Shown here in pieces: positions 171 through 10,676 of a DNA stretch of 10,676 nucleotides (position 1 is the first letter of the stretch; each line of letters starts with the position of its first letter). Source of the DNA: Candidatus Thorarchaeota archaeon (lineage in GTDB: Archaea > Asgardarchaeota > Thorarchaeia > Thorarchaeales > Thorarchaeaceae); contig JAWOEX010000015.1 of NCBI GenBank assembly GCA_046482545.1, positions 1-10,676 on the forward strand. Direction: 5' to 3'. A model generated the notes under the pieces. It did not search any database. It was not told the DNA's origin and worked only from the letters and a program-made list of their open reading frames with translations. The translations under genes and the position numbers were made by a program.

Positions 171-294
171 TCCGAAGTGAGCAGACCGAAAGTATGACTC
201 GTGCTGCACCTAGAGTTGTCAAGATTTGAGCAGAACCTCAAGAAACTGTACCTCCATCCTCAGCATTTCTTAGTTAGTTTTGGTTTTGCAGTGT
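171..294 (+). repeat. Repeat copy 1: last few nt of 23S rRNA plus 3' trailer and T-rich tail
   Basis: 171-266 aligns with 10279-10375 with few differences. Invariant core GTACCTCCATCCTCAGCAT at 248-266. The tail TTAGTTAGTTTTG is shared with copy 2 and TTTTGCAGTGT with copy 3. Confidence 0.93.
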
Positions 295-403
295 AATTTT
301 GTGAACAGAAGAGATGATTCTCCATCTGAAGAAACCTTGAGCATGAACAGGCAGTAGAGATATCAGATGCCAAGTAGGTACAGTCCTAGATTGGATCCCA
401 TTC

Positions 404-1300
404 ATGAAGGTGGTAAGACTGAATTTGGATTTTCAGGACTGCTTCGTTACGCCTGCAAGTCACAAAGAGCTCGCATTCGAGGGCACAGCAGGTAAGAAAG
501 AGGCATGGCAGAATGGATTTCTCCGTGCAGTTGATGATGACATAGAATATCCAGTAGCAGATGGAATTCCTGACTTCACAGAGATGTCAAAAAGAACTTG
601 GAGTGGTGGGGATGCAGATCGTACACCTCGCATGGATTGGATTCAGAGTAGCTGGAAAGACCACCTCCAAACTCTCCGGGAACACCATGATCACGCCTAC
701 TACTCCTTTGCCCGTCACATAGCAGAGAACCCCGGACTGGTGCTTGATATCGCAAGTGGCCCCGGTGGTGGGGCAATGCCAGCCTTGCTTTTCTTCGATT
801 CCAAAGCCAATATACTCATGACCGATCTGGGTGTCTCGGTGCTTTCATTGTGGCAGAAGCACTTGGACAGCATGGACGTTGGGGAGAACGTATCGTTTGC
901 AGGAATGGACGTTACGGTGTTACCCATTCGGAGCAAGAGCATGGATTATGTTACTGATAGCGGGGGCTTTGGGAATGTTGACAATAACAATGTCGCGCTG
1001 GCAGAAGCTTATCGAGTATTGAAGTCCGGTGGATATCTCTTCCTGAACGATGCCATTACAGAAGGACTCGACCAGTTTCCTGATGAAATCTACAAGGACT
1101 TAGTTTCGAAACAGCCTCACCACGAAGCGGGCTGGGAGGAACTCGTGAGATCATGTGGATTTGAGGTTCTGGAGACGAATATTTGGTCACAGTCACGACG
1201 TCGAATGAAGCATGATGAGAGTGATCTTGGCCCCTTGGCGAGAAAGCAAGACGTTGAAATATACTTCACTGGCTTCTCCCTTGCCGCTAAGAAACCATGA
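404..1300 (+). CDS. Class I SAM-dependent methyltransferase with N-terminal Trm112-like domain
   Basis: 298 aa. Motif I VLDIASGPGG, acidic residue after strand 2 (MTDLG), DVTVLP, MDYV, and ALAEAYRVLKSGGYL. The N-terminus ...GFL...EYPVADGIPDF resembles the Trm112 YPIxDGIP signature. Confidence 0.9.
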   Translation: MKVVRLNLDFQDCFVTPASHKELAFEGTAGKKEAWQNGFLRAVDDDIEYPVADGIPDFTEMSKRTWSGGDADRTPRMDWIQSSWKDHLQTLREHHDHAYYSFARHIAENPGLVLDIASGPGGGAMPALLFFDSKANILMTDLGVSVLSLWQKHLDSMDVGENVSFAGMDVTVLPIRSKSMDYVTDSGGFGNVDNNNVALAEAYRVLKSGGYLFLNDAITEGLDQFPDEIYKDLVSKQPHHEAGWEELVRSCGFEVLETNIWSQSRRRMKHDESDLGPLARKQDVEIYFTGFSLAAKKP

Positions 1301-1307
1301 AGGCTCC

Positions 1308-1370
1308 CAAGATTTGACAGAACCTCACAGAAGCAGTACCTCCATCCTCAGCATCTGTTAGTTAGTTTTG
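1308..1370 (+). repeat. Repeat copy 2 (most 5'-truncated copy of the rRNA 3' trailer)
   Basis: CAAGATTTGA at 1308-1317, GAACCTCA, core at 1336-1354 and tail TTAGTTAGTTTTG. Begins 7 nt after the methyltransferase stop codon. Confidence 0.92.
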
Positions 1371-1451
1371 ATTGCATTGCCTTTGAAGAATACAAGATAG
1401 GTGGATTTTTCCTGCGCTGCAATCTGATTATTGATATGATAGAAATGACGG

Positions 1452-1487
1452 AAAAAAAGAGGTAGAGGAACACTTTTCGTGCTCCTC
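1452..1487 (-). terminator. Hairpin plus oligo-T terminator of the 1512-2675 gene
   Basis: The minus strand reads GAGGAGCAC-GAAAA-GTGTTCCTC (9 bp with one G-U), then TACCTC and T7, starting about 25 nt after the stop. Confidence 0.7.
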
Positions 1488-1511
1488 ACTTAGAAATTCA
1501 TACTTGGACTA

Positions 1512-2675
1512 TCAGAATTTACTTTCAGCATTATAGCCTTCAATCATAAAGACGTATTCAACAACTTGCGTATGTTGACCTGCCATAAATTGGAGATCAA
1601 TATATTCACTAATTCCGTCATTATGGTTCGCTCCCAATGTGCCTATTCGACGATCATCACTGTTTTTAAGCAGATTAATCACATTTCCCTCTCTTGAATG
1701 CCCTGCATATACAAGAGGTAGTTCGATAACTGAGCCATCTGCAAGCCTAGCAAATAACTGGACCGAGTCAATGTGGGAGATTGTTTGAGGATGTTCAGTT
1801 AGTCTCAAGTAGTGCTTGTTACGCACTGTAGCTGGGGTTGTAACCAGTCTAGATCCAAAAGTAACATCATCTTCAGCATGGATACTGAGAAGCTCTTCGG
1901 TGACGTACTGTGTCCCATCATATACAGACAAGTACGGACAACCACCACCTTCGCTTTCACCGTCATCATATCTATAAACCAGAGATTCAGTGGTTGTCAC
2001 TTCTGTATATACTTGACTCTGCTGGAAGCGAGTCTTAAACTCGAAGTAAATCTCATAGGTTCCTTCGAGTGTAGGATCAACTTCGAGGTTGAATCCAAAA
2101 CGCATTCCTCGTTGGCTATCAGATTTATAGATAATATCATTGAAGTATCGCGCGTATGCCGTGTATGTTGTACGTCCTGTTGCAGATCCAGTTTCTCCTT
2201 GTGCTGCTTTTGTGATGTAACTGATTGGCAGTAGCCCCTCCGGTGAAATATCTCCCAAGAACGTCCACAAATTTTCAAGTACTTGTTGCTCTGCTCCGGA
2301 TTCTTCTGGACTTACCATAACGCTTAACGAACTAAACTCGTCGCCCAGCAAAGGTTGATCATTTGGTTTATATCCCCAGACCTTGATCCACATTTTGCTG
2401 GGTCCGAAATAATAGGGCGTGTTATCTCCCCAATCTCCAATGCTCATAAGAGATGCATAGAAACGTGGATGCGTATCTGAATGATATTCGCCTTGTGAGT
2501 AACCATATTCCACATTGCTTCCGTGTTTGCCTATTGGGTAAGAATTAACCTCGGCTGTTACTCCTTTTTCCCCTGTTTCATACCATGCAGCCACTGGTAT
2601 GGTTCCATATGCTAACATCAAAATCATCATCAGTGATAAAATGGCAGCTATTTTAGTATTTAGTTTTCTATTCAA
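1512..2675 (-). CDS. Secreted/cell-surface hypothetical protein
   Basis: 387 aa, TTG start. Signal peptide (MNRKLNTKIAAILSLMMILMLAYGTIPVAA) and a Tyr/Gly/Ser/Thr-rich beta-type body. C-terminal module GGGCPYLSVYDG...LRLTEHPQTISHIDSVQL is a 'CPxLxxxDG' pattern I recall from other extracellular proteins. Confidence 0.85.
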   Translation of the reverse strand: MNRKLNTKIAAILSLMMILMLAYGTIPVAAWYETGEKGVTAEVNSYPIGKHGSNVEYGYSQGEYHSDTHPRFYASLMSIGDWGDNTPYYFGPSKMWIKVWGYKPNDQPLLGDEFSSLSVMVSPEESGAEQQVLENLWTFLGDISPEGLLPISYITKAAQGETGSATGRTTYTAYARYFNDIIYKSDSQRGMRFGFNLEVDPTLEGTYEIYFEFKTRFQQSQVYTEVTTTESLVYRYDDGESEGGGCPYLSVYDGTQYVTEELLSIHAEDDVTFGSRLVTTPATVRNKHYLRLTEHPQTISHIDSVQLFARLADGSVIELPLVYAGHSREGNVINLLKNSDDRRIGTLGANHNDGISEYIDLQFMAGQHTQVVEYVFMIEGYNAESKF

Positions 2676-3030
2676 TTAAATTCCCGATGAACTCCGTTCA
2701 CCAACCATTAAATCTCAAAATACTATTTAAGGACTATACTTTTCAAGTAATCTTGCCACACTATGACTATATAGATAGAAGGCTAGTAAACATAACTCAT
2801 CTACCAGTCTATATTCATTACAAAACTACCACAGGTCCAAATGACTAAATGAAGTAGATGACAACTCGCTTTGGTTTCCGTAACATAACTTCATCTCCGT
2901 ATCCTCTTCCAATTAGAATCAGAGCTATCAAGATGTACTTTGTCTGAAATTCTTGAAGGCCAATGTTATCCGCGTTTTTCTCCGATAATTTTAAATGAGA
3001 CTCAGATGTATCTCAAAATGTGGAAGGGTT

Positions 3031-3615
3031 ATGAAAATAGGGGGGTTAATACGCAGGTTAGAGTTACTCTTACTAGCTATCCTGAATCTGGTTATTCCTT
3101 TTGTTCCCTGGTTTGGATTTTCAGGAGACATTGTTCATGTAGCTGTAGAAGAGCCGTATCCCGTAACAGGGGAGATTTATGGTTTTGGAGTAGGTCAACT
3201 GGACAGATGGAGTGGCCAAGTAACGATGTGGTCCAATGACACGCAGTTCAACTCAACATACAGCGATTTCTGGTTCGGTATATTACCCATCGTGAGCGGT
3301 TTGCTGCTCGTAATACTTGGAGTGGGGTACCACAGAATTCGTACGAGGCGAATCCGACAGGCTATGATTATCCTAGCGATTGTCTTCTCTGTGTCTGCTT
3401 TCGTCGTTGCCATGCTCTATGTTCCCCGGGTATTGATAATACAAGCTCAGATTCCAGACCTAGCTATCGATGCTGACTTCATGTTCAGAAACGAATTCAC
3501 AATCGGGCTGGGTCTGGGGCCTTTCATGAGTCTGTTTTCGGCCATCTTCTGCATCTTGTTTCTTGGAACGCTGGCACAAGAGGATGACAAATCTGAATCA
3601 GCGGAATCTCACTAA
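3031..3615 (+). CDS. Four-TM integral membrane hypothetical protein
   Basis: ORF 2995-3615. ATG 3031 (MKIGG) is preferred because purine-rich GGAAGGG lies just upstream. Four hydrophobic segments, with a basic cytoplasmic loop HRIRTRRIR. Confidence 0.8.
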   Translation: MKIGGLIRRLELLLLAILNLVIPFVPWFGFSGDIVHVAVEEPYPVTGEIYGFGVGQLDRWSGQVTMWSNDTQFNSTYSDFWFGILPIVSGLLLVILGVGYHRIRTRRIRQAMIILAIVFSVSAFVVAMLYVPRVLIIQAQIPDLAIDADFMFRNEFTIGLGLGPFMSLFSAIFCILFLGTLAQEDDKSESAESH

Positions 3616-3648
3616 AGCACAATGATTGAGGTTGGATATGATAACCGT

Positions 3649-3734
3649 ACCTAGAGTTGCCAAGATTTGAGCGGAACCTCAGAAAAGCAGTACCTCCATC
3701 CTCAGCATTTCAGTTTGTTTTGTTTTTGCAGTGT
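3649..3734 (+). repeat. Repeat copy 3 (5'-truncated rRNA 3' trailer)
   Basis: ACCTAGAGTTGCCAAGATTTGAGCGGAACCTCA, core at 3690-3708, T-rich tail ending TTTTGCAGTGT. Begins 33 nt after the stop at 3615. Confidence 0.93.
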
Positions 3735-3828
3735 GATTGATAGAAATGATGAGATAATATTTTATTCAAGGATAAGGCCGAAAATACTATCAGGGAAACA
3801 TCTAATCGCATATACAGGAGATGGTATT

Positions 3829-4377
3829 TTGAAGGGGCATACCACCAGAGAAGGACGGAGCATTTCGATATCTGGATACAAAGCTTTGGGGTTGCTCATA
3901 CTGGTAGCCATAGTAACCGCGAGCATAGTCGTGGTTGGTCTAACGCCTGTTCATAGAACGGATATCCAGCATTCAGACCCCGAAGGTGATGTATCAGATC
4001 CGAATTGCGATATAGTACAGATTACCTCGTATCGGGATGGAATCTACGTTGCCGTTGAAATGCAGGTGGCTGGGAGTGTACAAGAAAACAATGATTCCTT
4101 ACCCTATGGTTATTGGCTGATAGTCGTCTTGAGAGGCATTGAAGAGGGCCATACCGATTCTCATATCCTTAGTCTCTACTATGAGGACGGAACCACCTCA
4201 GAACCCAATCTTCCCGTTTCTGTCGAAAATGATTCGCTGAGACTATTGGTTCCTTTCAGCTGCTTCAATCCCGATTCGTACATGATTGGGCTTGAAGGGG
4301 CAGCCTCGAACGGACTTGAAGAGGATCTAACCCCAGTTGATAGGAATGGGACCGTGGCCAGAATGTTACTCCCCTAA
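3829..4377 (+). CDS. Membrane-anchored/secreted hypothetical protein with acidic beta-rich domain
   Basis: In frame with ORF 3667-4377, whose listed start lies inside the repeat. TTG 3829 follows AGGAG (3816-3820). One N-terminal TM helix (ALGLLILVAIVTASIVVVGL), then SDPEGDVSDPNCDI and alternating beta-strand patterns. Start codon uncertain. Confidence 0.75.
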   Translation: MKGHTTREGRSISISGYKALGLLILVAIVTASIVVVGLTPVHRTDIQHSDPEGDVSDPNCDIVQITSYRDGIYVAVEMQVAGSVQENNDSLPYGYWLIVVLRGIEEGHTDSHILSLYYEDGTTSEPNLPVSVENDSLRLLVPFSCFNPDSYMIGLEGAASNGLEEDLTPVDRNGTVARMLLP

Positions 4378-4416
4378 CCTGTTCTTTTCTGGCTGTTATG
4401 CTCAGACTGCAGGAAG

Positions 4417-4517
4417 AGACCGAAGGTATAACTCGTGCTGCACCTAGAGTTGCCAAGATTTGAGCAGAACCTCATGAAACATGTACCTCCATCCTCAGCA
4501 TTTCTCATTCAGTTTTG
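4417..4517 (+). repeat. Repeat copy 4 (5'-truncated rRNA 3' trailer)
   Basis: AGACCGAAGGTATAACTCGTGCTGCACCTAGAGTTGCCAAGATTTGAGCAGAACCTCA, core at 4483-4501. Begins 39 nt after the stop at 4377. Confidence 0.93.
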
Positions 4518-4623
4518 ATGTCTTACAGTGTTGTTTTTGCAGAAAGAGTTGGTATTCCGATTCTCAGTTGTCCCACACAAAACAGATGATACCTTATTGC
4601 GAGCAATATCTAAACGCGAACAA

Positions 4624-4651
4624 ATCAAGAATAGGCAAATTTTACAAAAAT
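4624..4651 (+). repeat. 28-bp imperfect direct repeat, left copy (flanks the structured RNA)
   Basis: ATCAAGAATAGGCAAATTTTACAAAAAT versus ATCAAGAATAGACAAGTTCTACGAGAAT at 5190-5217. 23/28 identical, and all differences are transitions. Confidence 0.65.
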
Positions 4652-4731
4652 CCTAAAAAATCCGAGTGGAAGAGTGTAAAAGATCTGTAAGATTTCCTGT
4701 AAGTGCTACTCTAGACCCAGGGCGGTATGAC

Positions 4732-4738
4732 TTTATTA
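4732..4738 (+). promoter_or_regulatory. Putative TATA box for the structured RNA
   Basis: TTTATTA about 25-30 nt upstream of the start of the GC-rich structured segment. Confidence 0.45.
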
Positions 4739-4763
4739 GGTCCAGTACGAAATTTCGTTTCAG

Positions 4764-5171
4764 TAGGACTAGGCAAGTGGGCTAGTGCTCTGACACGACG
4801 CGCGCGGCTGAAAGCTGTGAGGTGGACTCGTTCCCCTAAGCAGAAGTCCCCACTCTCCCCCAACGGTTCTCCATCAGACCGGGGAGAGTCCGCGGCTGTT
4901 CACCTCGTCTGTAATGGGCCATCTCTGCGGCGGTGACAATGTTGAGGTGGGTGATCATGACCACGCCGTGGCAAGAACTGTGGAAGACCTCGCTGTCGCC
5001 GGGAGTGATGACCCAGGATGACAACAGGAGAAAGAAGCCAGGACCGCGGGAGGAATCCCATTCCTGTGAACGTGGACAAAGCCCCTGCTGACTCACGGGC
5101 CTACGGGTACCGTGGGGGCGGCGACGCTGGCAGGGGAAGGGTGGAACACAGAAGTTTCATGCAGTTCCTAG
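4764..5171 (+). ncRNA. Unidentified large structured ncRNA candidate (~410 nt)
   Basis: GC-rich with no credible ORF. Nested helices: 4819-4827/4898-4906, 4852-4860/4881-4889, 4931-4938/4994-5001, 4944-4948/4987-4991, 5024-5029/5062-5067, 5082-5089/5129-5136 and 5092-5098/5110-5116. Tetraloops c(UACG)g 5102-5105, GCGA 5121-5124 and GGAA 5052-5055. The G-U pairs and tetraloops work on the + strand. Boundaries approximate. Confidence 0.7.
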
Positions 5172-5189
5172 AACTGTAAGAAATGGGTT

Positions 5190-5217
5190 ATCAAGAATAG
5201 ACAAGTTCTACGAGAAT
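5190..5217 (+). repeat. 28-bp imperfect direct repeat, right copy
   Basis: 23/28 identity with 4624-4651. Confidence 0.65.
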
Positions 5218-5288
5218 GAATAACTACTAGAGAACCGTTAATTTCTCATAATCATCAATATATATCCAAGCTGATACATGGAACGATT

Positions 5289-5777
5289 TTATTTCGGAGT
5301 TTGTCTTCTCCTAACAATAACGTCAACCGCCGCTATGCCGAACATAACTGCGGCTACAACAAACACCCGTGGATGCGGAGTTGTCCTAAAAACATGCAAA
5401 TCAAAATAGGCGCCCTCGGCGCTGCTGTTGGATGGCGTGACGAAGGCCACATATGTCCCGGACGAAAGCGGGAGTACTTCGGTGTGTTGTTCTACCTCTT
5501 CGATTTCATATAGGATAGTGCAGTTCTCAAGAGACTCCTCCTCAAAAGCGGTTAACGCCTCGTCATATGTCATTACCAGGATATCGAAGCTCTCATTTCC
5601 CAGTGGATAGATATCCAAATCAACGGTAATGCTTCCAGTTGTTTGGACCACATGCCCATAGTATGTTCCACCGTCCATGAAGTCGCCATTTTCCACAATC
5701 ACGTCGGGAATGAATGCGACAATACACAGCACGACCCCAACGATGACGAATGCCTTAGCTCTGTTGGTATTGGTCAT
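5289..5777 (-). CDS. Two-TM membrane protein with acidic extracytoplasmic domain (ABC operon accessory subunit)
   Basis: ORF 5289-5804. ATG 5777 (MTNTNRAK) is preferred: it follows the permease stop (TGA-A-ATG) and a GGAGG RBS. TM helices at both termini. Confidence 0.8.
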   Translation of the reverse strand: MTNTNRAKAFVIVGVVLCIVAFIPDVIVENGDFMDGGTYYGHVVQTTGSITVDLDIYPLGNESFDILVMTYDEALTAFEEESLENCTILYEIEEVEQHTEVLPLSSGTYVAFVTPSNSSAEGAYFDLHVFRTTPHPRVFVVAAVMFGIAAVDVIVRRRQTPK

Positions 5778-5778
5778 T

Positions 5779-6606
5779 TCATATCTCCCTCCACATGAAT
5801 GCAATGAGTCCGATTACAAGCAACACGATTCCAAGGATGAACGATGCTGTCATAGGTACGAAGACATCAAGAAAGGACACCTCTAGCCCCCTGAATACTG
5901 CAATATCTCCGAGCATATAGACAATAATGGATTGAACCGGGTAGAATATCCCTTGGATCAACTGGCTACTTGCAGGGTTCGTGGCAAGGGTCAGGCCCGC
6001 CATCCAGCCACCTATCCCCGTAACGAGCGTAGCAGGCGCGCTCTTCGAGACAACCGCAACGAGTGTGCATGCGGATCCAAGGAGAAATGCGAATGACCAC
6101 TGGGTTAGCATCAAGAGGAGAATCAATGGGATATGGGGGAGAACTGGAAAGAAAAAGAACAATGCAAGTATCGAGCTTACATTGGCGGTAATGGCTGTTA
6201 CAAGAATCGCCGTTCCGGTTTTTGTTAGAAGCACTCTTGGTCTAGTTGTAGGATACGACAACAGCGTCCGCAGTTCACCGTTCGAGAACCCCTGTGCAAG
6301 AGTGAACGCAATCAGAAGCGGGACAAGGAGTATGAGGACGAACAGAGAGCTCTGAAACGTATGAAAGTATGCCATGGCAATGCGTTCCCGCGCGATTTGC
6401 TCTGCGCGCTCGATTGCTCCTGTACTGCTCCACCATTCAGCGCCTGGTGCCAAGTATACGCCTACGTTCCACATATACTGCGATAGCACGGTGTATGACA
6501 GCACAAAGAGCATGATGGATACGATGCTAGCAAGTGACGGAAATCTGTATGACCCTTCAAAATTGAGGCGGAACAACCGCCAGAGCCTGTTCCTACGCTT
6601 TGCCAC
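5779..6606 (-). CDS. ABC-2 type transporter permease
   Basis: 275 aa, about 6 TM helices. Motif GELRTLLSYPTTRPRVLLTK is typical of ABC-2 permeases. GTG start with AGGTGA RBS, overlapping the ATPase stop. Confidence 0.9.
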   Translation of the reverse strand: MAKRRNRLWRLFRLNFEGSYRFPSLASIVSIMLFVLSYTVLSQYMWNVGVYLAPGAEWWSSTGAIERAEQIARERIAMAYFHTFQSSLFVLILLVPLLIAFTLAQGFSNGELRTLLSYPTTRPRVLLTKTGTAILVTAITANVSSILALFFFFPVLPHIPLILLLMLTQWSFAFLLGSACTLVAVVSKSAPATLVTGIGGWMAGLTLATNPASSQLIQGIFYPVQSIIVYMLGDIAVFRGLEVSFLDVFVPMTASFILGIVLLVIGLIAFMWREI

Positions 6607-7519
6607 TCTTGGTCACCTTCCTATAGACGTCCTCAAGGTTTCCCGTCCCTTCTATCTCAAACACATCCGTATTCGCGTCTTTAGCGATTCGTTCCACTTT
6701 CGATTCTATTTGTTCAGCGACATTCGGGGTTACCTCGATTATCACCGTCGAGGAACCGGTGACAAGTACATCTATCACACCATCTTCATGTTCTAGAGCT
6801 TGAGACAAGCGCTTGGCGTCCGGTGTCAATACCTTGAACCTGTTCTCAGTATGTTTCCTGATAAGCTCAGAAACGAGCCCGGAATCTATTACCTTCCCGG
6901 ATTGGATAAATGCTACATTGTGACAAGCTCGCTCAACCTCTGATAGAATATGTGAAGATAGGAAAAACGAGACCCCCTCCTCCTCGTACAGATCAACCAA
7001 GAGACGAATCACTATGTCCCGCCCGTCAACATCCAAGTTCGATGTGGGCTCATCTAGAAACACGAGTTCCGGGTTTCCGATAATCGCCTGTGCAATACCG
7101 AGCCTTCGCTTCATCCCTGCAGAGAATTCCCCTATCTTCCGATCTGCTGCATCGCTCAGGTTGACAAGTGACAAGACTTCAGTCGACTCCTTGCAAGTTG
7201 GATACATTGACCCAACAAGATCCAGATATCGCTTCGCAGCCATCGAGGGATAGTAATAGGGGTGTTCATGGAGAACTCCAATTCTTTCTCTTATTCCCCC
7301 GTCTTCGTTGATGGATTGCCCAAAGATGGATGCATGACCACCATCGGGCTTCGCTAGTCCTAGGAGTATTCTCAGAAGAGTGGTTTTCCCTGCTCCATTG
7401 GGCCCGATGAGTCCAAATATGCCGGCGCTAATGTTGAGCGTTAATCCATCAAGCGCTTTCACATTTCCGAAGCTTTTGTGTAGGCTGTCAACAAATATGA
7501 TGTTACCTCGGCCGGTCAT
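6593..7519 (-). CDS. ABC-2 type transporter ATP-binding protein
   Basis: 308 aa. Walker A GPNGAGKT, signature FSAGMKRR, Walker B/D-loop VFLDEPTSNLD and H-loop SSH. Confidence 0.96.
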   Translation of the reverse strand: MTGRGNIIFVDSLHKSFGNVKALDGLTLNISAGIFGLIGPNGAGKTTLLRILLGLAKPDGGHASIFGQSINEDGGIRERIGVLHEHPYYYPSMAAKRYLDLVGSMYPTCKESTEVLSLVNLSDAADRKIGEFSAGMKRRLGIAQAIIGNPELVFLDEPTSNLDVDGRDIVIRLLVDLYEEEGVSFFLSSHILSEVERACHNVAFIQSGKVIDSGLVSELIRKHTENRFKVLTPDAKRLSQALEHEDGVIDVLVTGSSTVIIEVTPNVAEQIESKVERIAKDANTDVFEIEGTGNLEDVYRKVTKSGKA

Positions 7520-7558
7520 ATTCCCACCTTAACCAACAATCAAGTTCAAAATTTCTGG

Positions 7559-7573
7559 GCATATATTTGTTTT
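7559..7573 (-). promoter_or_regulatory. Putative BRE/TATA promoter of the ABC operon
   Basis: The minus strand reads AAAACAAATATATG about 40-55 nt upstream of ATG 7519. Confidence 0.45.
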
Positions 7574-7582
7574 GGCAAAAAT

Positions 7583-8568
7583 GGTTCTGTAGAATAATAC
7601 ACGAATTAAGAGGCGAACCGGTCGTGTCACATGATTCATGCACTACGATGTCTCATACAACGCGGCCAAAGCTCGCCGCTATCACTTTCTCCTTTATGAG
7701 CTTATGAGCCTTTGCAATACCATTCCCGATACGAGATCCCAGCATGGACGTCCTGTTGAGTTTCCCCTTCCCACACTCTTTGTCCTCCTCGGGCTCAAGT
7801 TTGACACTGGTCTTGGATATCGTGACTTCATTGCCACCCTCACCTTCAACACTGTCCTGCTCCAGCGACTTGGACTTGAGCGAGCCCCTCACTTCTCCCT
7901 CCTCCAGAAGGCAGTGAGGCGGTTGGACACCCAGCTTCTCCATCAGATGTACCAGCTCCTTGCCAACAAGCGTTCTCCTCCAAAGACGATTGCTGTGGAT
8001 TCTTCTGGGTTCTCTCACTCGTCCGGTGGCGAGTGGATGACCTTCCGGTTCAAGAGAACACGGAAACGCCGTTTCCATGCCCTTCACAACGCCGTTGACA
8101 CCGACACCCTGATGATCACCGCAGCTAGAGTGAGTGCACGACCAGGTGGTGATGCCAAACACCTGGCCTCTCTTGTGAGGAGGGGGGATTGCAGGAGACT
8201 TGAGACTGTCTACGGGGACAAGGCCTACATCTCACGACAGAACGTCCAGTTCATCCATGACCTTGGTGCATACCCAGCTATTGAACCAAAGAAGAGGTTG
8301 CGAGCTCGATCTCGAGGACATCGAGGATACAAGGAGTTGATCAGTGAATATCGCTCTGACCCCGATGAGTGGAAGCGGGTTCATGAGTATGGAATGAGGA
8401 GCCTAGCGGAGACTGTGTTCGGGATGATGAAGGTGAGGTTCACGGAGCGTCTGGGGTCACGAGGATTCAGAGAACAACGTCGCGAGTTGTTGATCAAGGT
8501 GGTCCTTCACAATATCGAGCGACTCAACTTCTTGGAGTGTGCCGGGAGGTGACTTTTTCTACAGAGCC
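7583..8568 (+). mobile_element. Complete IS5-family insertion sequence (IS903-like ends), 986 bp
   Basis: TIRs GGTTCTGTAGAATAA (7583-7597) and TTTTTCTACAGAGCC (8554-8568), 13/15 match. 9-bp target duplication GGCAAAAAT at 7574-7582 and 8569-8577. One transposase ORF fills the element. Confidence 0.93.
7638..8552 (+). CDS. IS5-family DDE transposase
   Basis: 304 aa. IAVDSSG (D1), YGDKAY (D2), and YGMRSLAETVFGMMK, which fits the Y-2-R-3-E-6-K motif. Confidence 0.95.
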   Translation: MHYDVSYNAAKARRYHFLLYELMSLCNTIPDTRSQHGRPVEFPLPTLFVLLGLKFDTGLGYRDFIATLTFNTVLLQRLGLERAPHFSLLQKAVRRLDTQLLHQMYQLLANKRSPPKTIAVDSSGFSHSSGGEWMTFRFKRTRKRRFHALHNAVDTDTLMITAARVSARPGGDAKHLASLVRRGDCRRLETVYGDKAYISRQNVQFIHDLGAYPAIEPKKRLRARSRGHRGYKELISEYRSDPDEWKRVHEYGMRSLAETVFGMMKVRFTERLGSRGFREQRRELLIKVVLHNIERLNFLECAGR

Positions 8569-8577
8569 GGCAAAAAT

Positions 8578-8708
8578 GGCGTTGTGTGAAAAGTCCTTGG
8601 CGATGAATGTGTGTGACCGGAAAAAAGGGAAATGATTTCAGAAACCAGGCATTTTGGAATTTGATTACTCCATTTCCTTACTTCTTCGTTGACTTTTCAC
8701 ACAGGGCC
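8578..8708. mobile_element. 131-bp MITE (non-autonomous IS5-type element)
   Basis: TIRs GGCGTTGTGTGAAAAGTC (8578-8595) and GACTTTTCACACAGGGCC (8691-8708), 16/18 match. Flanked by GGCAAAAAT at 8569-8577 and 8709-8717. Its right TIR matches the IS right end at 14/18. Confidence 0.88.
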
Positions 8709-8717
8709 GGCAAAAAT

Positions 8718-8916
8718 GGCTCTGTGGAAACCACAACGATATAATGCAAGCAAACAAGGTCGCGTACGTGTGCTGTTCGATTTATGTCATACTATCAATC
8801 ACTTGAAACAGGCAAATCTCGCCATTCTGGCTCCTTGCTTTCTTAATTTACTCGGCTTAACAAAGGGATATCTCCGACTGCGGTCGATTTTTGAAAGACC
8901 AGTTGACCTTTCGTAA
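8718..8916 (+). pseudogene. Third IS-like end with possible degenerate transposase N-terminus
   Basis: GGCTCTGTGGAAA (8718-8730) resembles the IS TIR GGCTCTGTAGAAA. The following frame has YNASK...LCHTI...LLGL..GY, in the same order as YNAAK...LCNTI...LLGL...GY of the intact transposase. No matching right end or fourth TSD was found. Confidence 0.4.
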
Positions 8917-9429
8917 GTACCTTGTCCCCCTCATAGGACTTGTTTTTCTTTTTTGACTATGACTTGAGCAACGAACCCCCATCTATCTTCTCCAGAAGTA
9001 ATTTAAGTGAATCGACAGCAACCTGTTACATCCGGTGGACGAGCTTTTGGACACCAAATGTTCATCCCTATGTGATCGTAGCTAGCGCTTGTGGAATCGC
9101 CTTATTCGACCGGTGACCGATTAAGGATTTATGCAGTTCAGAAAGACATAGAGACGACAGCTCCACATAATTGTAATACTGAGTATACGGATATGTAGTT
9201 CATGCATATCAGAAGGGAGCTGAGGTGTGGAAGGAACGATGTCAGCACAACAGGTGGCATCTCTCAGAACTATGTTTATTATAATGAAACTGTTACTCGA
9301 AAAAACTTGATTCAACAGTTTCACAGGGAACAGGACCTCGCTATCGTCAATTAAATGCCTGTTACATTACATCGAGTGACTCAATTATTTAAGCGGAAGG
9401 AGAAATAGTTTCCCCTTCATTAAATTTCA

Positions 9430-9445
9430 GAAAACTATTTATATA
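9430..9445 (+). promoter_or_regulatory. BRE/TATA promoter of the 9480 gene
   Basis: GAAAACTA-TTTATATA, with the TATA box at 9438-9445, about 35 nt upstream of the GTG start. Confidence 0.6.
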
Positions 9446-9479
9446 ATAATTCATATCAATTCCATGAGGCTTGTAACAC

Positions 9480-9971
9480 GTGAAAAGCAAAAGTAATGCG
9501 ATTATTCTATGTTTAGCTATATTGATAATAGCTGGATTTGTTGCTCCTGCCTTGGCAGGACGAATCACATACAATGATGATGAACCTACAGTTTATTATG
9601 GAAGCTGGGAAAGCGACGACGATGCCACTGAAGAAGATATTAATGGTATTTATCGCTGCGAATTTCAGTTCGTATTCACCGGAATTAAAACTGATGGTGA
9701 TAATGAATACTATGTCAATATTGATTATGACGGCGAAGAACCTGGATGGCTGTGGGACGCTGAAAGTCTTTATGTTCACTATAAGTGGGGTTCTGGCAGC
9801 TGGGTATATCTTTGCAGGTTAGACATTGCAACTTCAGACAAGGATTGGGAAATTAATGATGCAACCAGTTCAACCCTCTACCTCCGTTTCACGGATGCTA
9901 ATGATTATAGTGATGACACCCTCCATACATGGAAATTTAGCGATACACCGTACGCTATCTGTGACTACTAG
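9480..9971 (+). CDS. Small secreted acidic hypothetical protein
   Basis: 163 aa, GTG start. Signal peptide MKSKSNAIILCLAILIIAGFVAPALA. Mature domain rich in Asp/Glu/Trp/Tyr with beta-type patterning. Has its own promoter and terminator. Confidence 0.85.
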   Translation: MKSKSNAIILCLAILIIAGFVAPALAGRITYNDDEPTVYYGSWESDDDATEEDINGIYRCEFQFVFTGIKTDGDNEYYVNIDYDGEEPGWLWDAESLYVHYKWGSGSWVYLCRLDIATSDKDWEINDATSSTLYLRFTDANDYSDDTLHTWKFSDTPYAICDY

Positions 9972-10019
9972 TATTCGACAATTAAATGAATTAGAGATTT
10001 AATAATACAAATAAAGATT

Positions 10020-10062
10020 GGGTTGCTGCTCAAGCAACCCTTTCTTCCTCTTTTCCTATTTT
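10020..10062 (+). terminator. Hairpin plus T-rich terminator
   Basis: GGGTTGCT-GCTCA-AGCAACCC is a perfect 8-bp stem, followed by TTTCTTCCTCTTTTCCTATTTT. Confidence 0.75.
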
Positions 10063-10235
10063 CGACTACACAAAGGAGTTGTCACTTCGTAGGATAATTC
10101 TGTATCGGATTCACATCAATTTTGTTCATAATAAATGACGGTCATGATCCTGCAAACTAATTCATTTTGGTCACAACAAACCCTTATTCAACTAAACGAG
10201 GGACACCAGCAATTTCGCTATTTCAAGGGAATCGG

Positions 10236-10290
10236 AGCACCGAGCTCCGGCGAGGTGTTCAGCTCACCGCTACTAATGTCCGAGGCGAGC
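10236..10290 (+). rRNA. 23S rRNA 3'-terminal fragment (helix 101 to 3' end; not a full gene)
   Basis: AGCACC-GA-GC-TCCG-GC-GA-GGTGTT forms the archaeal-type helix 101 with tandem GA pairs and a UNCG loop. It is followed by CAGCTCACCGCTACTAATGTCCGAGGC, which matches the conserved LSU 3' end as I recall it (E. coli GUUGAGCUAACCGGUACUAAUGAACCGUGAGGC). Upstream 23S sequence is absent. Mature 3' end approximate. Confidence 0.8.
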
Positions 10291-10375
10291 AGACCGAAAG
10301 TATGACTCGTGCTGCACCTAGAGTTGTCAAGATTTGAGACGGAACCTCAAGAAACAGTACCTCCATCCTCAGCAT
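10236..10375 (+). repeat. Repeat copy 5 (longest): 23S 3' end plus 3' trailer
   Basis: 10279-10375 aligns with 171-266. Core at 10357-10375, followed by a T-rich tract. Confidence 0.93.
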
Positions 10376-10676
10376 CTATTTTATTTTAGTAATGCGGTTT
10401 CAAAACAAGAAGAAATGATGGTCCGTTTTGTTGTTTTTCGCAGACGGCTTCATTTCACTTCCCTGGTTATGCCTGTTCATGAGTCGATTCTGAGAGCAAG
10501 TCTCAAATAGTGCCGCTCTTTCTCATGTCAGGATAGTAGGAACGGGAGTCAAATGTCAGGTTTCTTCCACTACAATAGGAAGATGCGGTTAGAGCGAGTG
10601 CTTTCGCTGGGTTGTGTTCTCCAGTTGTATTCATCTGAGTGGAGACTGACATCTGATGCCAATCACACAGAGGGCA

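Follow-up and report, generated by a model that had tools for sequence, protein, structure and literature searches.

Co-oriented copies of the 23S rRNA 3' end punctuate a gene-cassette array in a Thorarchaeota genome and may be turned over without an integrase

How does a row of unrelated accessory genes come to be separated by copies of the end of a ribosomal RNA gene? The question is raised by the window analyzed here, the whole 10,676-nt stretch of contig JAWOEX010000015.1 (assembly GCA_046482545.1) from Candidatus Thorarchaeota archaeon. A first-pass annotation had recognized five same-strand repeat copies that split the window into blocks, and our analysis agrees, with start-to-start spacings of 1087, 2354, 793 and 5874 bp. 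Repeat coordinates are given relative to position 0, the Rfam end of the only 23S gene in the source genome (C2:80561-83864). In the repeat, 0-60 nt of mature 23S sequence are followed by the stem strand that lies 3' in the BHB processing stem and then by a T-rich, terminator-like run. It had been described as the 23S 3' end and trailer; both are indeed present, but the conserved part is mostly the stem strand (+5..+79) rather than mature 23S, and the core stops at +80. All five copies are on the + strand and carry T-rich tails. Copy 1 (171..323) covers -16..+80 (171-266), including 23S tail and BHB stem strand; copy 2 (1308..1387) covers +33..+80 (to 1354) and is without the BHB; copy 3 (3649..3720) covers +21..+80 (to 3708), starting exactly where the 4-bp helix of the BHB begins; and copy 4 (4417..4559) covers -4..+80 (to 4501). 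Copy 5, the longest (10236..10426), contains 23S positions -59..0 (10236-10295), the BHB helix and bulge (10316-10322) and the stem strand to +80 (10375). An Rfam scan of the window returned nothing relevant, the 23S fragment being too short for the LSU model.

The source genome contains 33 co-oriented 23S-tail copies spanning ~76 kb, the five in the window among them. Comparison with the 23S gene on C2 bore out the prediction of an intact gene followed by the same trailer, and the further clustered copies that had been anticipated were found on adjoining contigs; C2 itself ends 204 nt past the 23S gene, so that gene and window are not joined on one contig. There are exactly 23 genome-wide occurrences of the 13-mer CCATCCTCAGCAT, compared to ~0.08 expected, and they are confined to the 23S contig and seven array contigs, on a single strand in each. 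Pairwise divergence among copies is 5-25%. The 5' starts of 69 copies range from -61 to +67, with one at -193 and a median of -18, and show no fixed base; the 5' start belonging to a given cassette is constant within a few nucleotides across three species. Distal copies are more decayed than the rest of the array, with 3'-side truncation in 4 of 8 distal versus 1 of 25 other copies (Fisher p=0.008; copies not independent). A universal att arm upstream of the longest copies was considered and rejected, because a single recurrent cassette family ends in that motif.

The blocks between copies hold 1-6 genes in both orientations. Block 1 encodes a 298-aa class I SAM methyltransferase (404..1300, + strand) for which no relatives were found in a genome-contig search; an identical protein has other cassettes behind it in run SRR31818007. 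Block 2 encodes a 387-aa, probably secreted protein with an N-terminal hydrophobic stretch and no Pfam or NCBIfam match (1512..2675, - strand), and a 206-aa probable membrane protein with no Pfam match (2995..3615, + strand). In block 3 is a gene for an N-anchored protein of ~180 aa (3829..4377, + strand), its start taken from a conspecific 182-aa gene call, which is the first gene behind 23S in the conspecific assembly GCA_051748335.1. The ABC operon and secreted protein previously noted in block 4 were confirmed as genes for an ABC ATPase (6593-7519), a permease-like membrane protein (5779-6606) and a small membrane protein (5289-5804), all on the - strand, and a 163-aa probable secreted protein without a family match (9480..9971, + strand). 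The earlier reading had missed a passenger in this block, an IS5-family element with terminal inverted repeats (7574..8568, + strand; transposase 7638-8552), and its putative ncRNA at 4620..5200 (no strand assigned) is a second passenger that is not part of the array site, namely a dispersed, non-autonomous element with ~50 copies genome-wide that shows a relationship to TnpB genes at their 3' end. For two of the window's proteins, no exact database record was found. Three + strand genes were confirmed to end just before the next copy, the reading frames ending at 1300, 3615 and 4377 stopping 7, 33 and 39 nt short of it. Cargo of the ~76-kb array includes toxin-antitoxin, candidate defence and transport genes and many orphan secreted and membrane proteins, and array GC is 44.3%, compared to 45.4% for the genome.

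In archaeal pre-rRNA processing, leader and trailer form a stem with a BHB that is cleaved and ligated to give a circular pre-rRNA (PMC7038931). The native 23S locus resembles this system: trailer positions +5..+79 are predicted to form a duplex with the 23S leader that contains a canonical BHB, and two studies provide RNA contigs in which +26 is followed directly by leader position -25, precisely the junction expected of circular pre-23S. Among the repeat copies, 90 substitutions at paired sites keep and 48 break pairing with the leader (21-42% expected; copies not independent), as would suit copies that were once working trailers. The block at +62..+80 is almost invariant, as pairing with the leader explains.

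The data, for the source genome as for its relatives, are short-read MAGs, in which rRNA genes may be chimeric. In GCA_051748335.1, the 23S gene is followed by copy 3 and then by blocks 3-4 at 99.95% identity to the window, and copy 3 from +21 on matches that strain's native 23S trailer without a difference, so that the truncated copy inside our window is the native trailer there. The 23S genes of the two assemblies are identical from -3205 to -158, show 10 differences at -157..-109, and are followed by different trailers. The difference tract would be consistent with a swap from inside the 23S gene; however, these assemblies also differ at 41 clustered sites in mid-16S, a possible sign of chimerism, and the tract could therefore be an assembly join. 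Cassette content and order vary among relatives, as had been predicted, and also within the species. Cassettes recur in three species with different neighbors, and one downstream cassette is found behind three different upstream cassettes and trailer haplotypes. At this cassette all four gametes are present at all 10 site pairs, a pattern that supports the exchange by recombination favored below, although recurrent change at wobble sites could be part of its cause. The crossover points fall ahead of +5, within +19..+32, beyond +48 and beyond +62, and crossovers probably occurred inside 23S itself as well.

A second array, with a trailer sequence unrelated to that of 23S, lies behind the 16S gene, and in the congener G077 there are satellite clusters away from 23S. 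The first-pass annotation had envisaged new DNA being added just behind a 23S gene in a possibly chronological series. Addition at this position is supported by the displaced copy that equals the native trailer of a conspecific and by the decay of distal copies, but the array type is not 23S-specific, given the parallel 16S array, nor is it strictly chronological, given crossovers at internal repeats and the satellite clusters of the congener. Copies of the 23S tail were found in 18 of 28 scorable family genomes and in none of 20 other Asgard genomes; the ten family genomes with no copies within 9-20 kb are an observation that sits uneasily with our preferred explanation. Clustered tail arrays were absent behind 21 called tRNAs and 5S, and upstream leader copies were absent at both the 16S and the 23S gene.

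The absence of an integrase and a reverse transcriptase (RT) from the window, already reported, holds and extends to the source genome (98.9% complete), where searches detected no tyrosine recombinase (PF00589, also absent from congeners G077 and G078), serine resolvase, RT, IS110 or Cas1, and where a profile of the family's own nine integrases had no match. LAGLIDADG_1 was not found, and the single LAGLIDADG_3 match, a 1221-aa frame on C28, is probably an intein located away from the rRNA genes. TnpB genes are present in the source genome, and the element in the window gave no sign of a TnpB guide aimed at the rRNA tail. The proposal of an array without attC sites likewise stands: the box pairs RYYYAAC/GTTRRRY occur on neither strand of the five copies, and the repeats fold no better than shuffles (z -0.17 to +1.1). 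Bases 5' of the junctions matched 23S at 3.1 of 12 positions versus 2.9 expected by chance, a comparison biased by local alignment.

The layout invites comparison with tandem tRNA/tmRNA islands, an analogy drawn in the first-pass annotation, and it matches displaced-fragment arrays (PMC4383910). An integrase supplied in trans by a virus, a plasmid or an unrecognized host enzyme could insert circles that each bring a new 3' end, with 5' variety arising from different integrases or from erosion; the polarized, 3'-only growth, the near-invariance of +62..+80 and the presence of some tyrosine recombinase in 29 of 86 family genomes would suit such a process. The analogy nevertheless fails on both enzyme and site. 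Integrases occur in none of the cassettes and in none of three genus genomes, and the crossover point is not fixed, so that the findings accord better with homologous recombination than with integration at a specific site. Erosion does not account for the spread of 5' starts, because junctions keep their position from species to species; the invariant block is accounted for by leader pairing; and since the trailer of the 16S array is unrelated, one site-specific enzyme would not easily serve both targets. We consider integration in trans unlikely, and it is improbable that an unknown enzyme or RNA-guided process recognizes the stem. Turnover could also be purely intragenomic, with unequal recombination between chromosome copies duplicating the rRNA tail and its neighbor, deletions trimming the product, and cargo entering this tolerant region separately by IS elements or non-homologous insertion. 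The IS5 and TnpB-derived elements inside cassettes, the paralogous copies of some cassette families within one array, the ABC and secreted-protein modules also present outside it, and the block relocation seen in the G077 satellite clusters are compatible with this. It accounts poorly for cassettes that are 92-95% identical between species whose neighboring core genes are only 73-77% identical, and for a diversity of trailer haplotypes that nonetheless remain compatible with pairing, which different donors would be expected to supply; moreover, the native trailer of the conspecific differs from that of the source genome at +1..+20, so its locus is not a simple deletion product of the latter. 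We rate this explanation as rather improbable.

Variable 5' and common 3' ends resemble those of retrocopies, and pre-rRNA, abundant and BHB-processed, could have been reverse-transcribed at its 3' flank and inserted as 5'-truncated copies. Most copies, however, extend across the +26/+27 cleavage site, starts do not peak at +27, the genome yielded no RT, consistent target-site duplications (TSDs) were not found, and the copies are clustered behind the rRNA gene in one orientation rather than dispersed, making an RNA-templated origin very improbable. Scarcely credible is an assembly artefact or a MITE-like dispersed repeat. Contigs do break at repeats, the assembly graph offers alternative entries (C18 or C19 into C13; C17 or C45 into C32), and rRNA chimerism is plausible; yet the divergent copies also lie within contigs that were assembled independently, the complete chromosome CP070658 among them, and Logan contigs reproduce the window blocks without differences. 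The repeats have neither terminal inverted repeats nor TSDs and lack the genome-wide dispersal of a MITE or non-autonomous transposon.

The explanation we favor, and hold to be probable, is an additive, integrase-free cassette island at rRNA 3' ends, in which homologous recombination by the host (RadA-type) drives the turnover and a rare illegitimate join creates a new cassette end. The left-hand crossover of DNA from a related cell would lie within the rRNA gene, which is highly conserved, or at any repeat, and the right-hand one at any downstream repeat or shared cassette. Cassettes would thus be added, deleted or replaced, while a trailer that pairs with the resident 5' leader would always be restored, because rRNA maturation needs it; a cassette added at the front would shift older trailers downstream. 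RadA is present in the source genome. Two observations weigh on the other side: identity between repeats is short for RadA (19-140 bp), and ComEC, relevant to the route of DNA entry, was not found in the genus. Homology-facilitated illegitimate recombination is a process of bacterial transformation in the laboratory, where it generally causes loss of recipient DNA without leaving repeats in series. As reportedly described by de Vries and Wackernagel in 2002, it combines a homologous anchor on one side with an illegitimate join on the other, and a similar one-sided anchor could create a new cargo-tail junction. Such rare events would be homologous on the rRNA side, with the illegitimate join on the opposite side close to the rRNA end, and the junctions would then be inherited together with the cassette; long duplications were probably purged by recombination, leaving tails of 50-190 bp. 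Both the 3'-only polarity and this origin of new junctions are what we infer. There is, in our judgment, an even chance that the array amounts to an integron-like capture platform without a dedicated recombinase, in which leader pairing keeps the stem trailer recombinogenic across species as a shared exchange site at both Thorarchaeia rRNA genes; such a platform would be self-sustaining, built from ribosome-biogenesis signals and host recombination.

Several known systems share parts of this design. In tandem tRNA/tmRNA islands (PMC4383910) and in the additive flexible islands of Alteromonas (PMC4898812) and Ca. Actinomarinales (PMC7771536), incoming DNA also restores the 3' end of a stable-RNA gene that is essential and leaves a co-oriented displaced fragment, cassette number and order vary among strains, and cassettes are common to several species. 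The targets here are instead 23S and 16S rRNA, and the repeated part is mainly a processing-stem strand. Each tRNA/tmRNA island has its own tyrosine integrase and a fixed crossover site, whereas no integrase was found here and junctions vary over ~130 nt; tandems of at least three number only 4 in Islander (PMC4383910), compared to up to 33 copies per assembly here. Additive flexible islands are driven by integrases or transposases; in the present array no integrase was found, and the IS5 and TnpB-derived passengers lie inside cassettes and not at their borders. Chromosomal integrons and CALINs, including archaeal ones (PMC9668308), resemble it as long accessory cassette arrays with co-oriented sites, variability at one end, and toxin-antitoxin, defence and orphan membrane or secreted cargo. 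However, integron cassettes mostly carry a single co-oriented ORF, in contrast to the multigene, bidirectional blocks found here, and IntI, attC boxes and hairpin are all missing from our array, where the site is an rRNA tail; CALINs lack IntI, so its absence alone does not exclude a CALIN. For Ca. Pelagibacter, it has been proposed that homologous recombination anchored in rRNA genes swaps the variable DNA next to them (PMC4033161, citing Wilhelm 2007); that island is exchanged in its entirety between its two flanks and has no repeated rRNA tails, while the many internal tails of our array would allow exchange of single cassettes. HeimM2 of Ca. Heimdallarchaeum is likewise mobile DNA directly behind a single Asgard rRNA gene, but it is one element with a homing-endonuclease-like gene, and no trailer-copy array is reported there (PMC8813620). 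R2-like and group II rRNA retroelements differ in their encoded RT and fixed insertion site.

We found no description of rRNA-tail cassette arrays in the searchable literature, which leaves subscription journals outside its coverage. Integron and island finders search for attC, tRNA fragments or integrases, and are therefore blind to such arrays; tail sites are easily detected by self-matches of the rRNA tail, so a survey across archaea is possible. An rRNA reporter already available for Haloferax (PMC7038931) would allow tests of RadA dependence and of trailer function. The locus also carries two warnings: exchange between lineages may affect rRNA 3' ends, and contigs of MAGs are systematically interrupted at rRNA-tail arrays. 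Cassettes seem to be exchanged between strains by ordinary DNA-repair recombination and not by an integrase, and the array shows where, and probably how, these Asgard archaea acquire and shuffle accessory genes in a genome without a detected site-specific recombinase.

The rRNA-tail array is a real feature of the source genome (3.05 Mb, 98.9% complete, 45 contigs), which has a single 23S gene (C2:80561-83864) on a contig that ends 204 nt past it. Counting from the Rfam 23S end as position 0, copies 1 to 5 of the window span -16..+80, +33..+80, +21..+80, -4..+80 and -59..+80, with a T-rich tail behind each; these five repeats, their spacing and three short gaps between a stop codon and the next repeat are all as the first-pass annotation described. 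Genome-wide we found 33 copies of the 23S tail, on one strand only on any given contig (five on C13, four on C17, five on C18, which is the window, six on C19, one on C31, eight on C32 and four on C45), and the 13-mer repeat core occurs 23 times versus 0.08 expected. Exact contig-end overlaps lead from C18 or C19 to C13, from C13 to C17, and from C17 or C45 to C32, where the array passes into housekeeping genes. Array DNA amounts to ~76 kb, with 44.3% GC versus 45.4% for the genome. The assembly seems to mix strains that vary in the proximal part of the array, since alternative contigs come together toward its distal end. Decay is commoner among distal copies (4/8 versus 1/25, p=0.008, for copies that are not independent). 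The C31 copy is a lone orphan tail on a separate graph path (C27-C3-C31-C7), with genes for a RadA paralogue, a TBP-like protein and a GH3-family protein nearby. Another dispersed repeat of ~135 bp lies at C2:4839-4973 and ~15 other sites, with one copy upstream of the 16S leader.

The repeat corresponds to one strand of the rRNA processing stem. Trailer positions +5..+79 pair with leader positions -78..-9 in a predicted duplex containing a canonical bulge-helix-bulge (BHB; trailer helix +21..+24, bulge +25..+27), and the repeat core stops at +80, where the stem stops. RNA contigs from two salt-lake studies depart from the window after 10321 (+26) and resume at leader position -25, exactly where circular pre-23S should have its junction. 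In Haloferax, both circular pre-rRNA and mature rRNA need the BHB (PMC7038931); DNA inserted at the 23S end must therefore carry a compatible stem strand. Among paired-site substitutions in the copies, 90 keep leader pairing and 48 break it, where 21-42% keeping would be expected; variants are common to several copies, so these counts are indicative only. The copies may thus have diverged while acting as working trailers. The 23S sequence is conserved family-wide as far as +36. In Thermococcus the helix 98 region is cut out to give a permuted 23S (bioRxiv 10.64898/2026.03.23.713588), and judging from this conservation the Thorarchaeia 23S could be permuted as well. Conspecific strains differ in a hairpin at -157..-138, which is situated in that helix 98 region.

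Comparison among relatives, proposed in the first-pass annotation, revealed that both cassette content and order vary. A conspecific assembly, GCA_051748335.1, matches C2 at 99.7% identity across 10.9 kb and window 3649-9510 at 99.95%, and its intact 23S is followed directly by window copy 3, then blocks 3 and 4. The trailer native there is internal in the source genome, cut at +21; its positions +1..+20 are unlike the native trailer of the source genome, and that trailer is therefore no simple deletion derivative of the source genome. In run SRR31818007 the window methyltransferase and copy 2 precede genes matching two cassettes on C17. Both congeners, G077 and G078, again contain cassettes, at 79-95% identity, beside other neighbours, whereas the core genes on either side of the G077 clusters mostly show 73-77% identity to the source genome. 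Accessory genes make up the cargo: PIN toxins, TPR proteins, ABC modules, DUF4268, DprA with PRTase, orphan proteins of the membrane or secreted kind, and several candidate-defence matches in PADLOC. The DprA and PRTase pair on C13 (L099:4920-6624) matches the PADLOC models ShosA/ShosT, making it a candidate anti-phage system.

A second array lies behind the 16S gene (C2:1487-33000), with five co-oriented trailer copies, several of them fused to tails of a 365-aa gene in convergent orientation; its cassettes also occur in G077 in a different order. Such 16S-trailer arrays, with 4-10 copies, were present in 5/6 other family genomes with enough downstream sequence. Copies of the 23S tail matching the genome's own trailer were found in 18 family genomes, while 10 had none within 9-20 kb; none occurred in 20 Asgard genomes of other families, searched up to 20 kb, indicating a low false-positive rate. 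No clustered tail arrays were found at called tRNAs or 5S, and no upstream leader copies were found. Blocks can be relocated, since some G077 clusters lie away from 23S (one is entered by way of an IS5) and a co-oriented copy is found 240 kb downstream in G006. One G077 cluster sits between orthologues of C9:57021 and 55889. In four genomes of one genus (G063, G064, G056, G067) the first copy lies 1.0-1.4 kb behind 23S with its junction at -2 to -7, which points to an ancestral cassette that has become fixed.

Across three species, 69 copies have 5' starts ranging from -61 to +67, with one at -193 (median -18), yet the junction of a single cassette is constant to a few nt across species (-7, -15, -17 and -24 families), indicating that junctions are rarely made and then inherited. 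The upstream cassettes and trailer haplotypes that precede one downstream cassette come in three different versions. Four gametes occur for each of the ten pairs that the common variable sites form, and crossovers map to positions before +5, at +19..+32, after +48 and after +62. Between the 23S genes of the source genome and GCA_051748335.1 there is no difference over -3205 to -158, but there are 10 in -157..-109, where the source genome differs more from its conspecific than from other species. This is the pattern that homologous recombination would leave on exchanging a 3' tract from within the 23S gene. An assembly chimera of this tract is possible because the same assemblies, otherwise identical, differ at 41 clustered mid-16S sites (C33:33275-33751), themselves a chimera or a recombined tract. 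Even with a 23S chimera, identical cassettes would directly adjoin another lineage's 23S end, and that the array as a whole is an artefact is scarcely credible.

No tyrosine or serine recombinase, RT, IS110 or Cas1 was found in the 98.9% complete source genome, nor did a profile built from the family's own integrases match it, and PF00589 is absent from both congeners; we regard an integrase acting in trans as unlikely, and retro-copying as very improbable. A tyrosine recombinase, including a XerA-like gene, was not detected in the source genome, G077, G078 or 57/86 family genomes. RadA is encoded, and ComEC was not found. The repeat lacks attC boxes and an attC fold, as the first-pass annotation had held, and the TIRs and TSDs that would have marked a MITE are likewise absent. 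Block 4 does hold passengers. Its supposed ncRNA (4620-5200) proved to be a non-autonomous dispersed element (~570 bp, ~50 copies on 26 contigs, bounded by the short direct core TCAAGA) matching 3' ends of TnpB genes, its distal part matching those of 545-560 aa TnpB-like ORFs (C28, C34, C20, C23). It has heavy coverage in RNA contigs and may be an orphan omegaRNA-type locus. To the cargo originally listed for this block must be added an IS5-family element with TIRs (7574-8568), then, within 8550-8726, a 140-bp remnant that shares its end motif; in G077:C64 a 98% identical IS5 copy marks where a satellite cassette cluster is entered. Intragenomic duplication with cargo brought by IS nevertheless seems quite improbable to us.

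We consider it probable that cassettes are added, deleted or replaced when DNA donated by relatives recombines with the rRNA gene or its repeats. The left crossover would lie within the rRNA gene or within a repeat, the right one in any later repeat or shared cassette, and each exchange would restore a leader-compatible trailer. New cassette ends would come from infrequent one-sided events in which an illegitimate join forms close to the rRNA end. The 3'-only polarity may arise because orphan terminators do no harm or are of use, unlike orphan rRNA promoters; three window genes stop just short of a tail. The first-pass label of integron-like holds for appearance, which recalls integrons and CALINs (PMC9668308), but neither attC nor IntI is present. 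In its working the array resembles tandem tRNA/tmRNA islands and additive flexible islands, whose telltale trace is a repeat from the gene they target (PMC4383910, PMC4898812, PMC7771536), but it departs from them in target, integrase and fixed site. For a Pelagibacter replacement island, rRNA genes were proposed as recombination anchors (PMC4033161); that island is without the internal rRNA tails seen here. The first-pass annotation knew of no description for archaeal 23S trailers, and we found none of rRNA-tail cassette arrays in the openly accessible literature. We class the array with additive stable-RNA-anchored islands, its novelty being that no dedicated enzyme was found and that the site is an rRNA processing stem.
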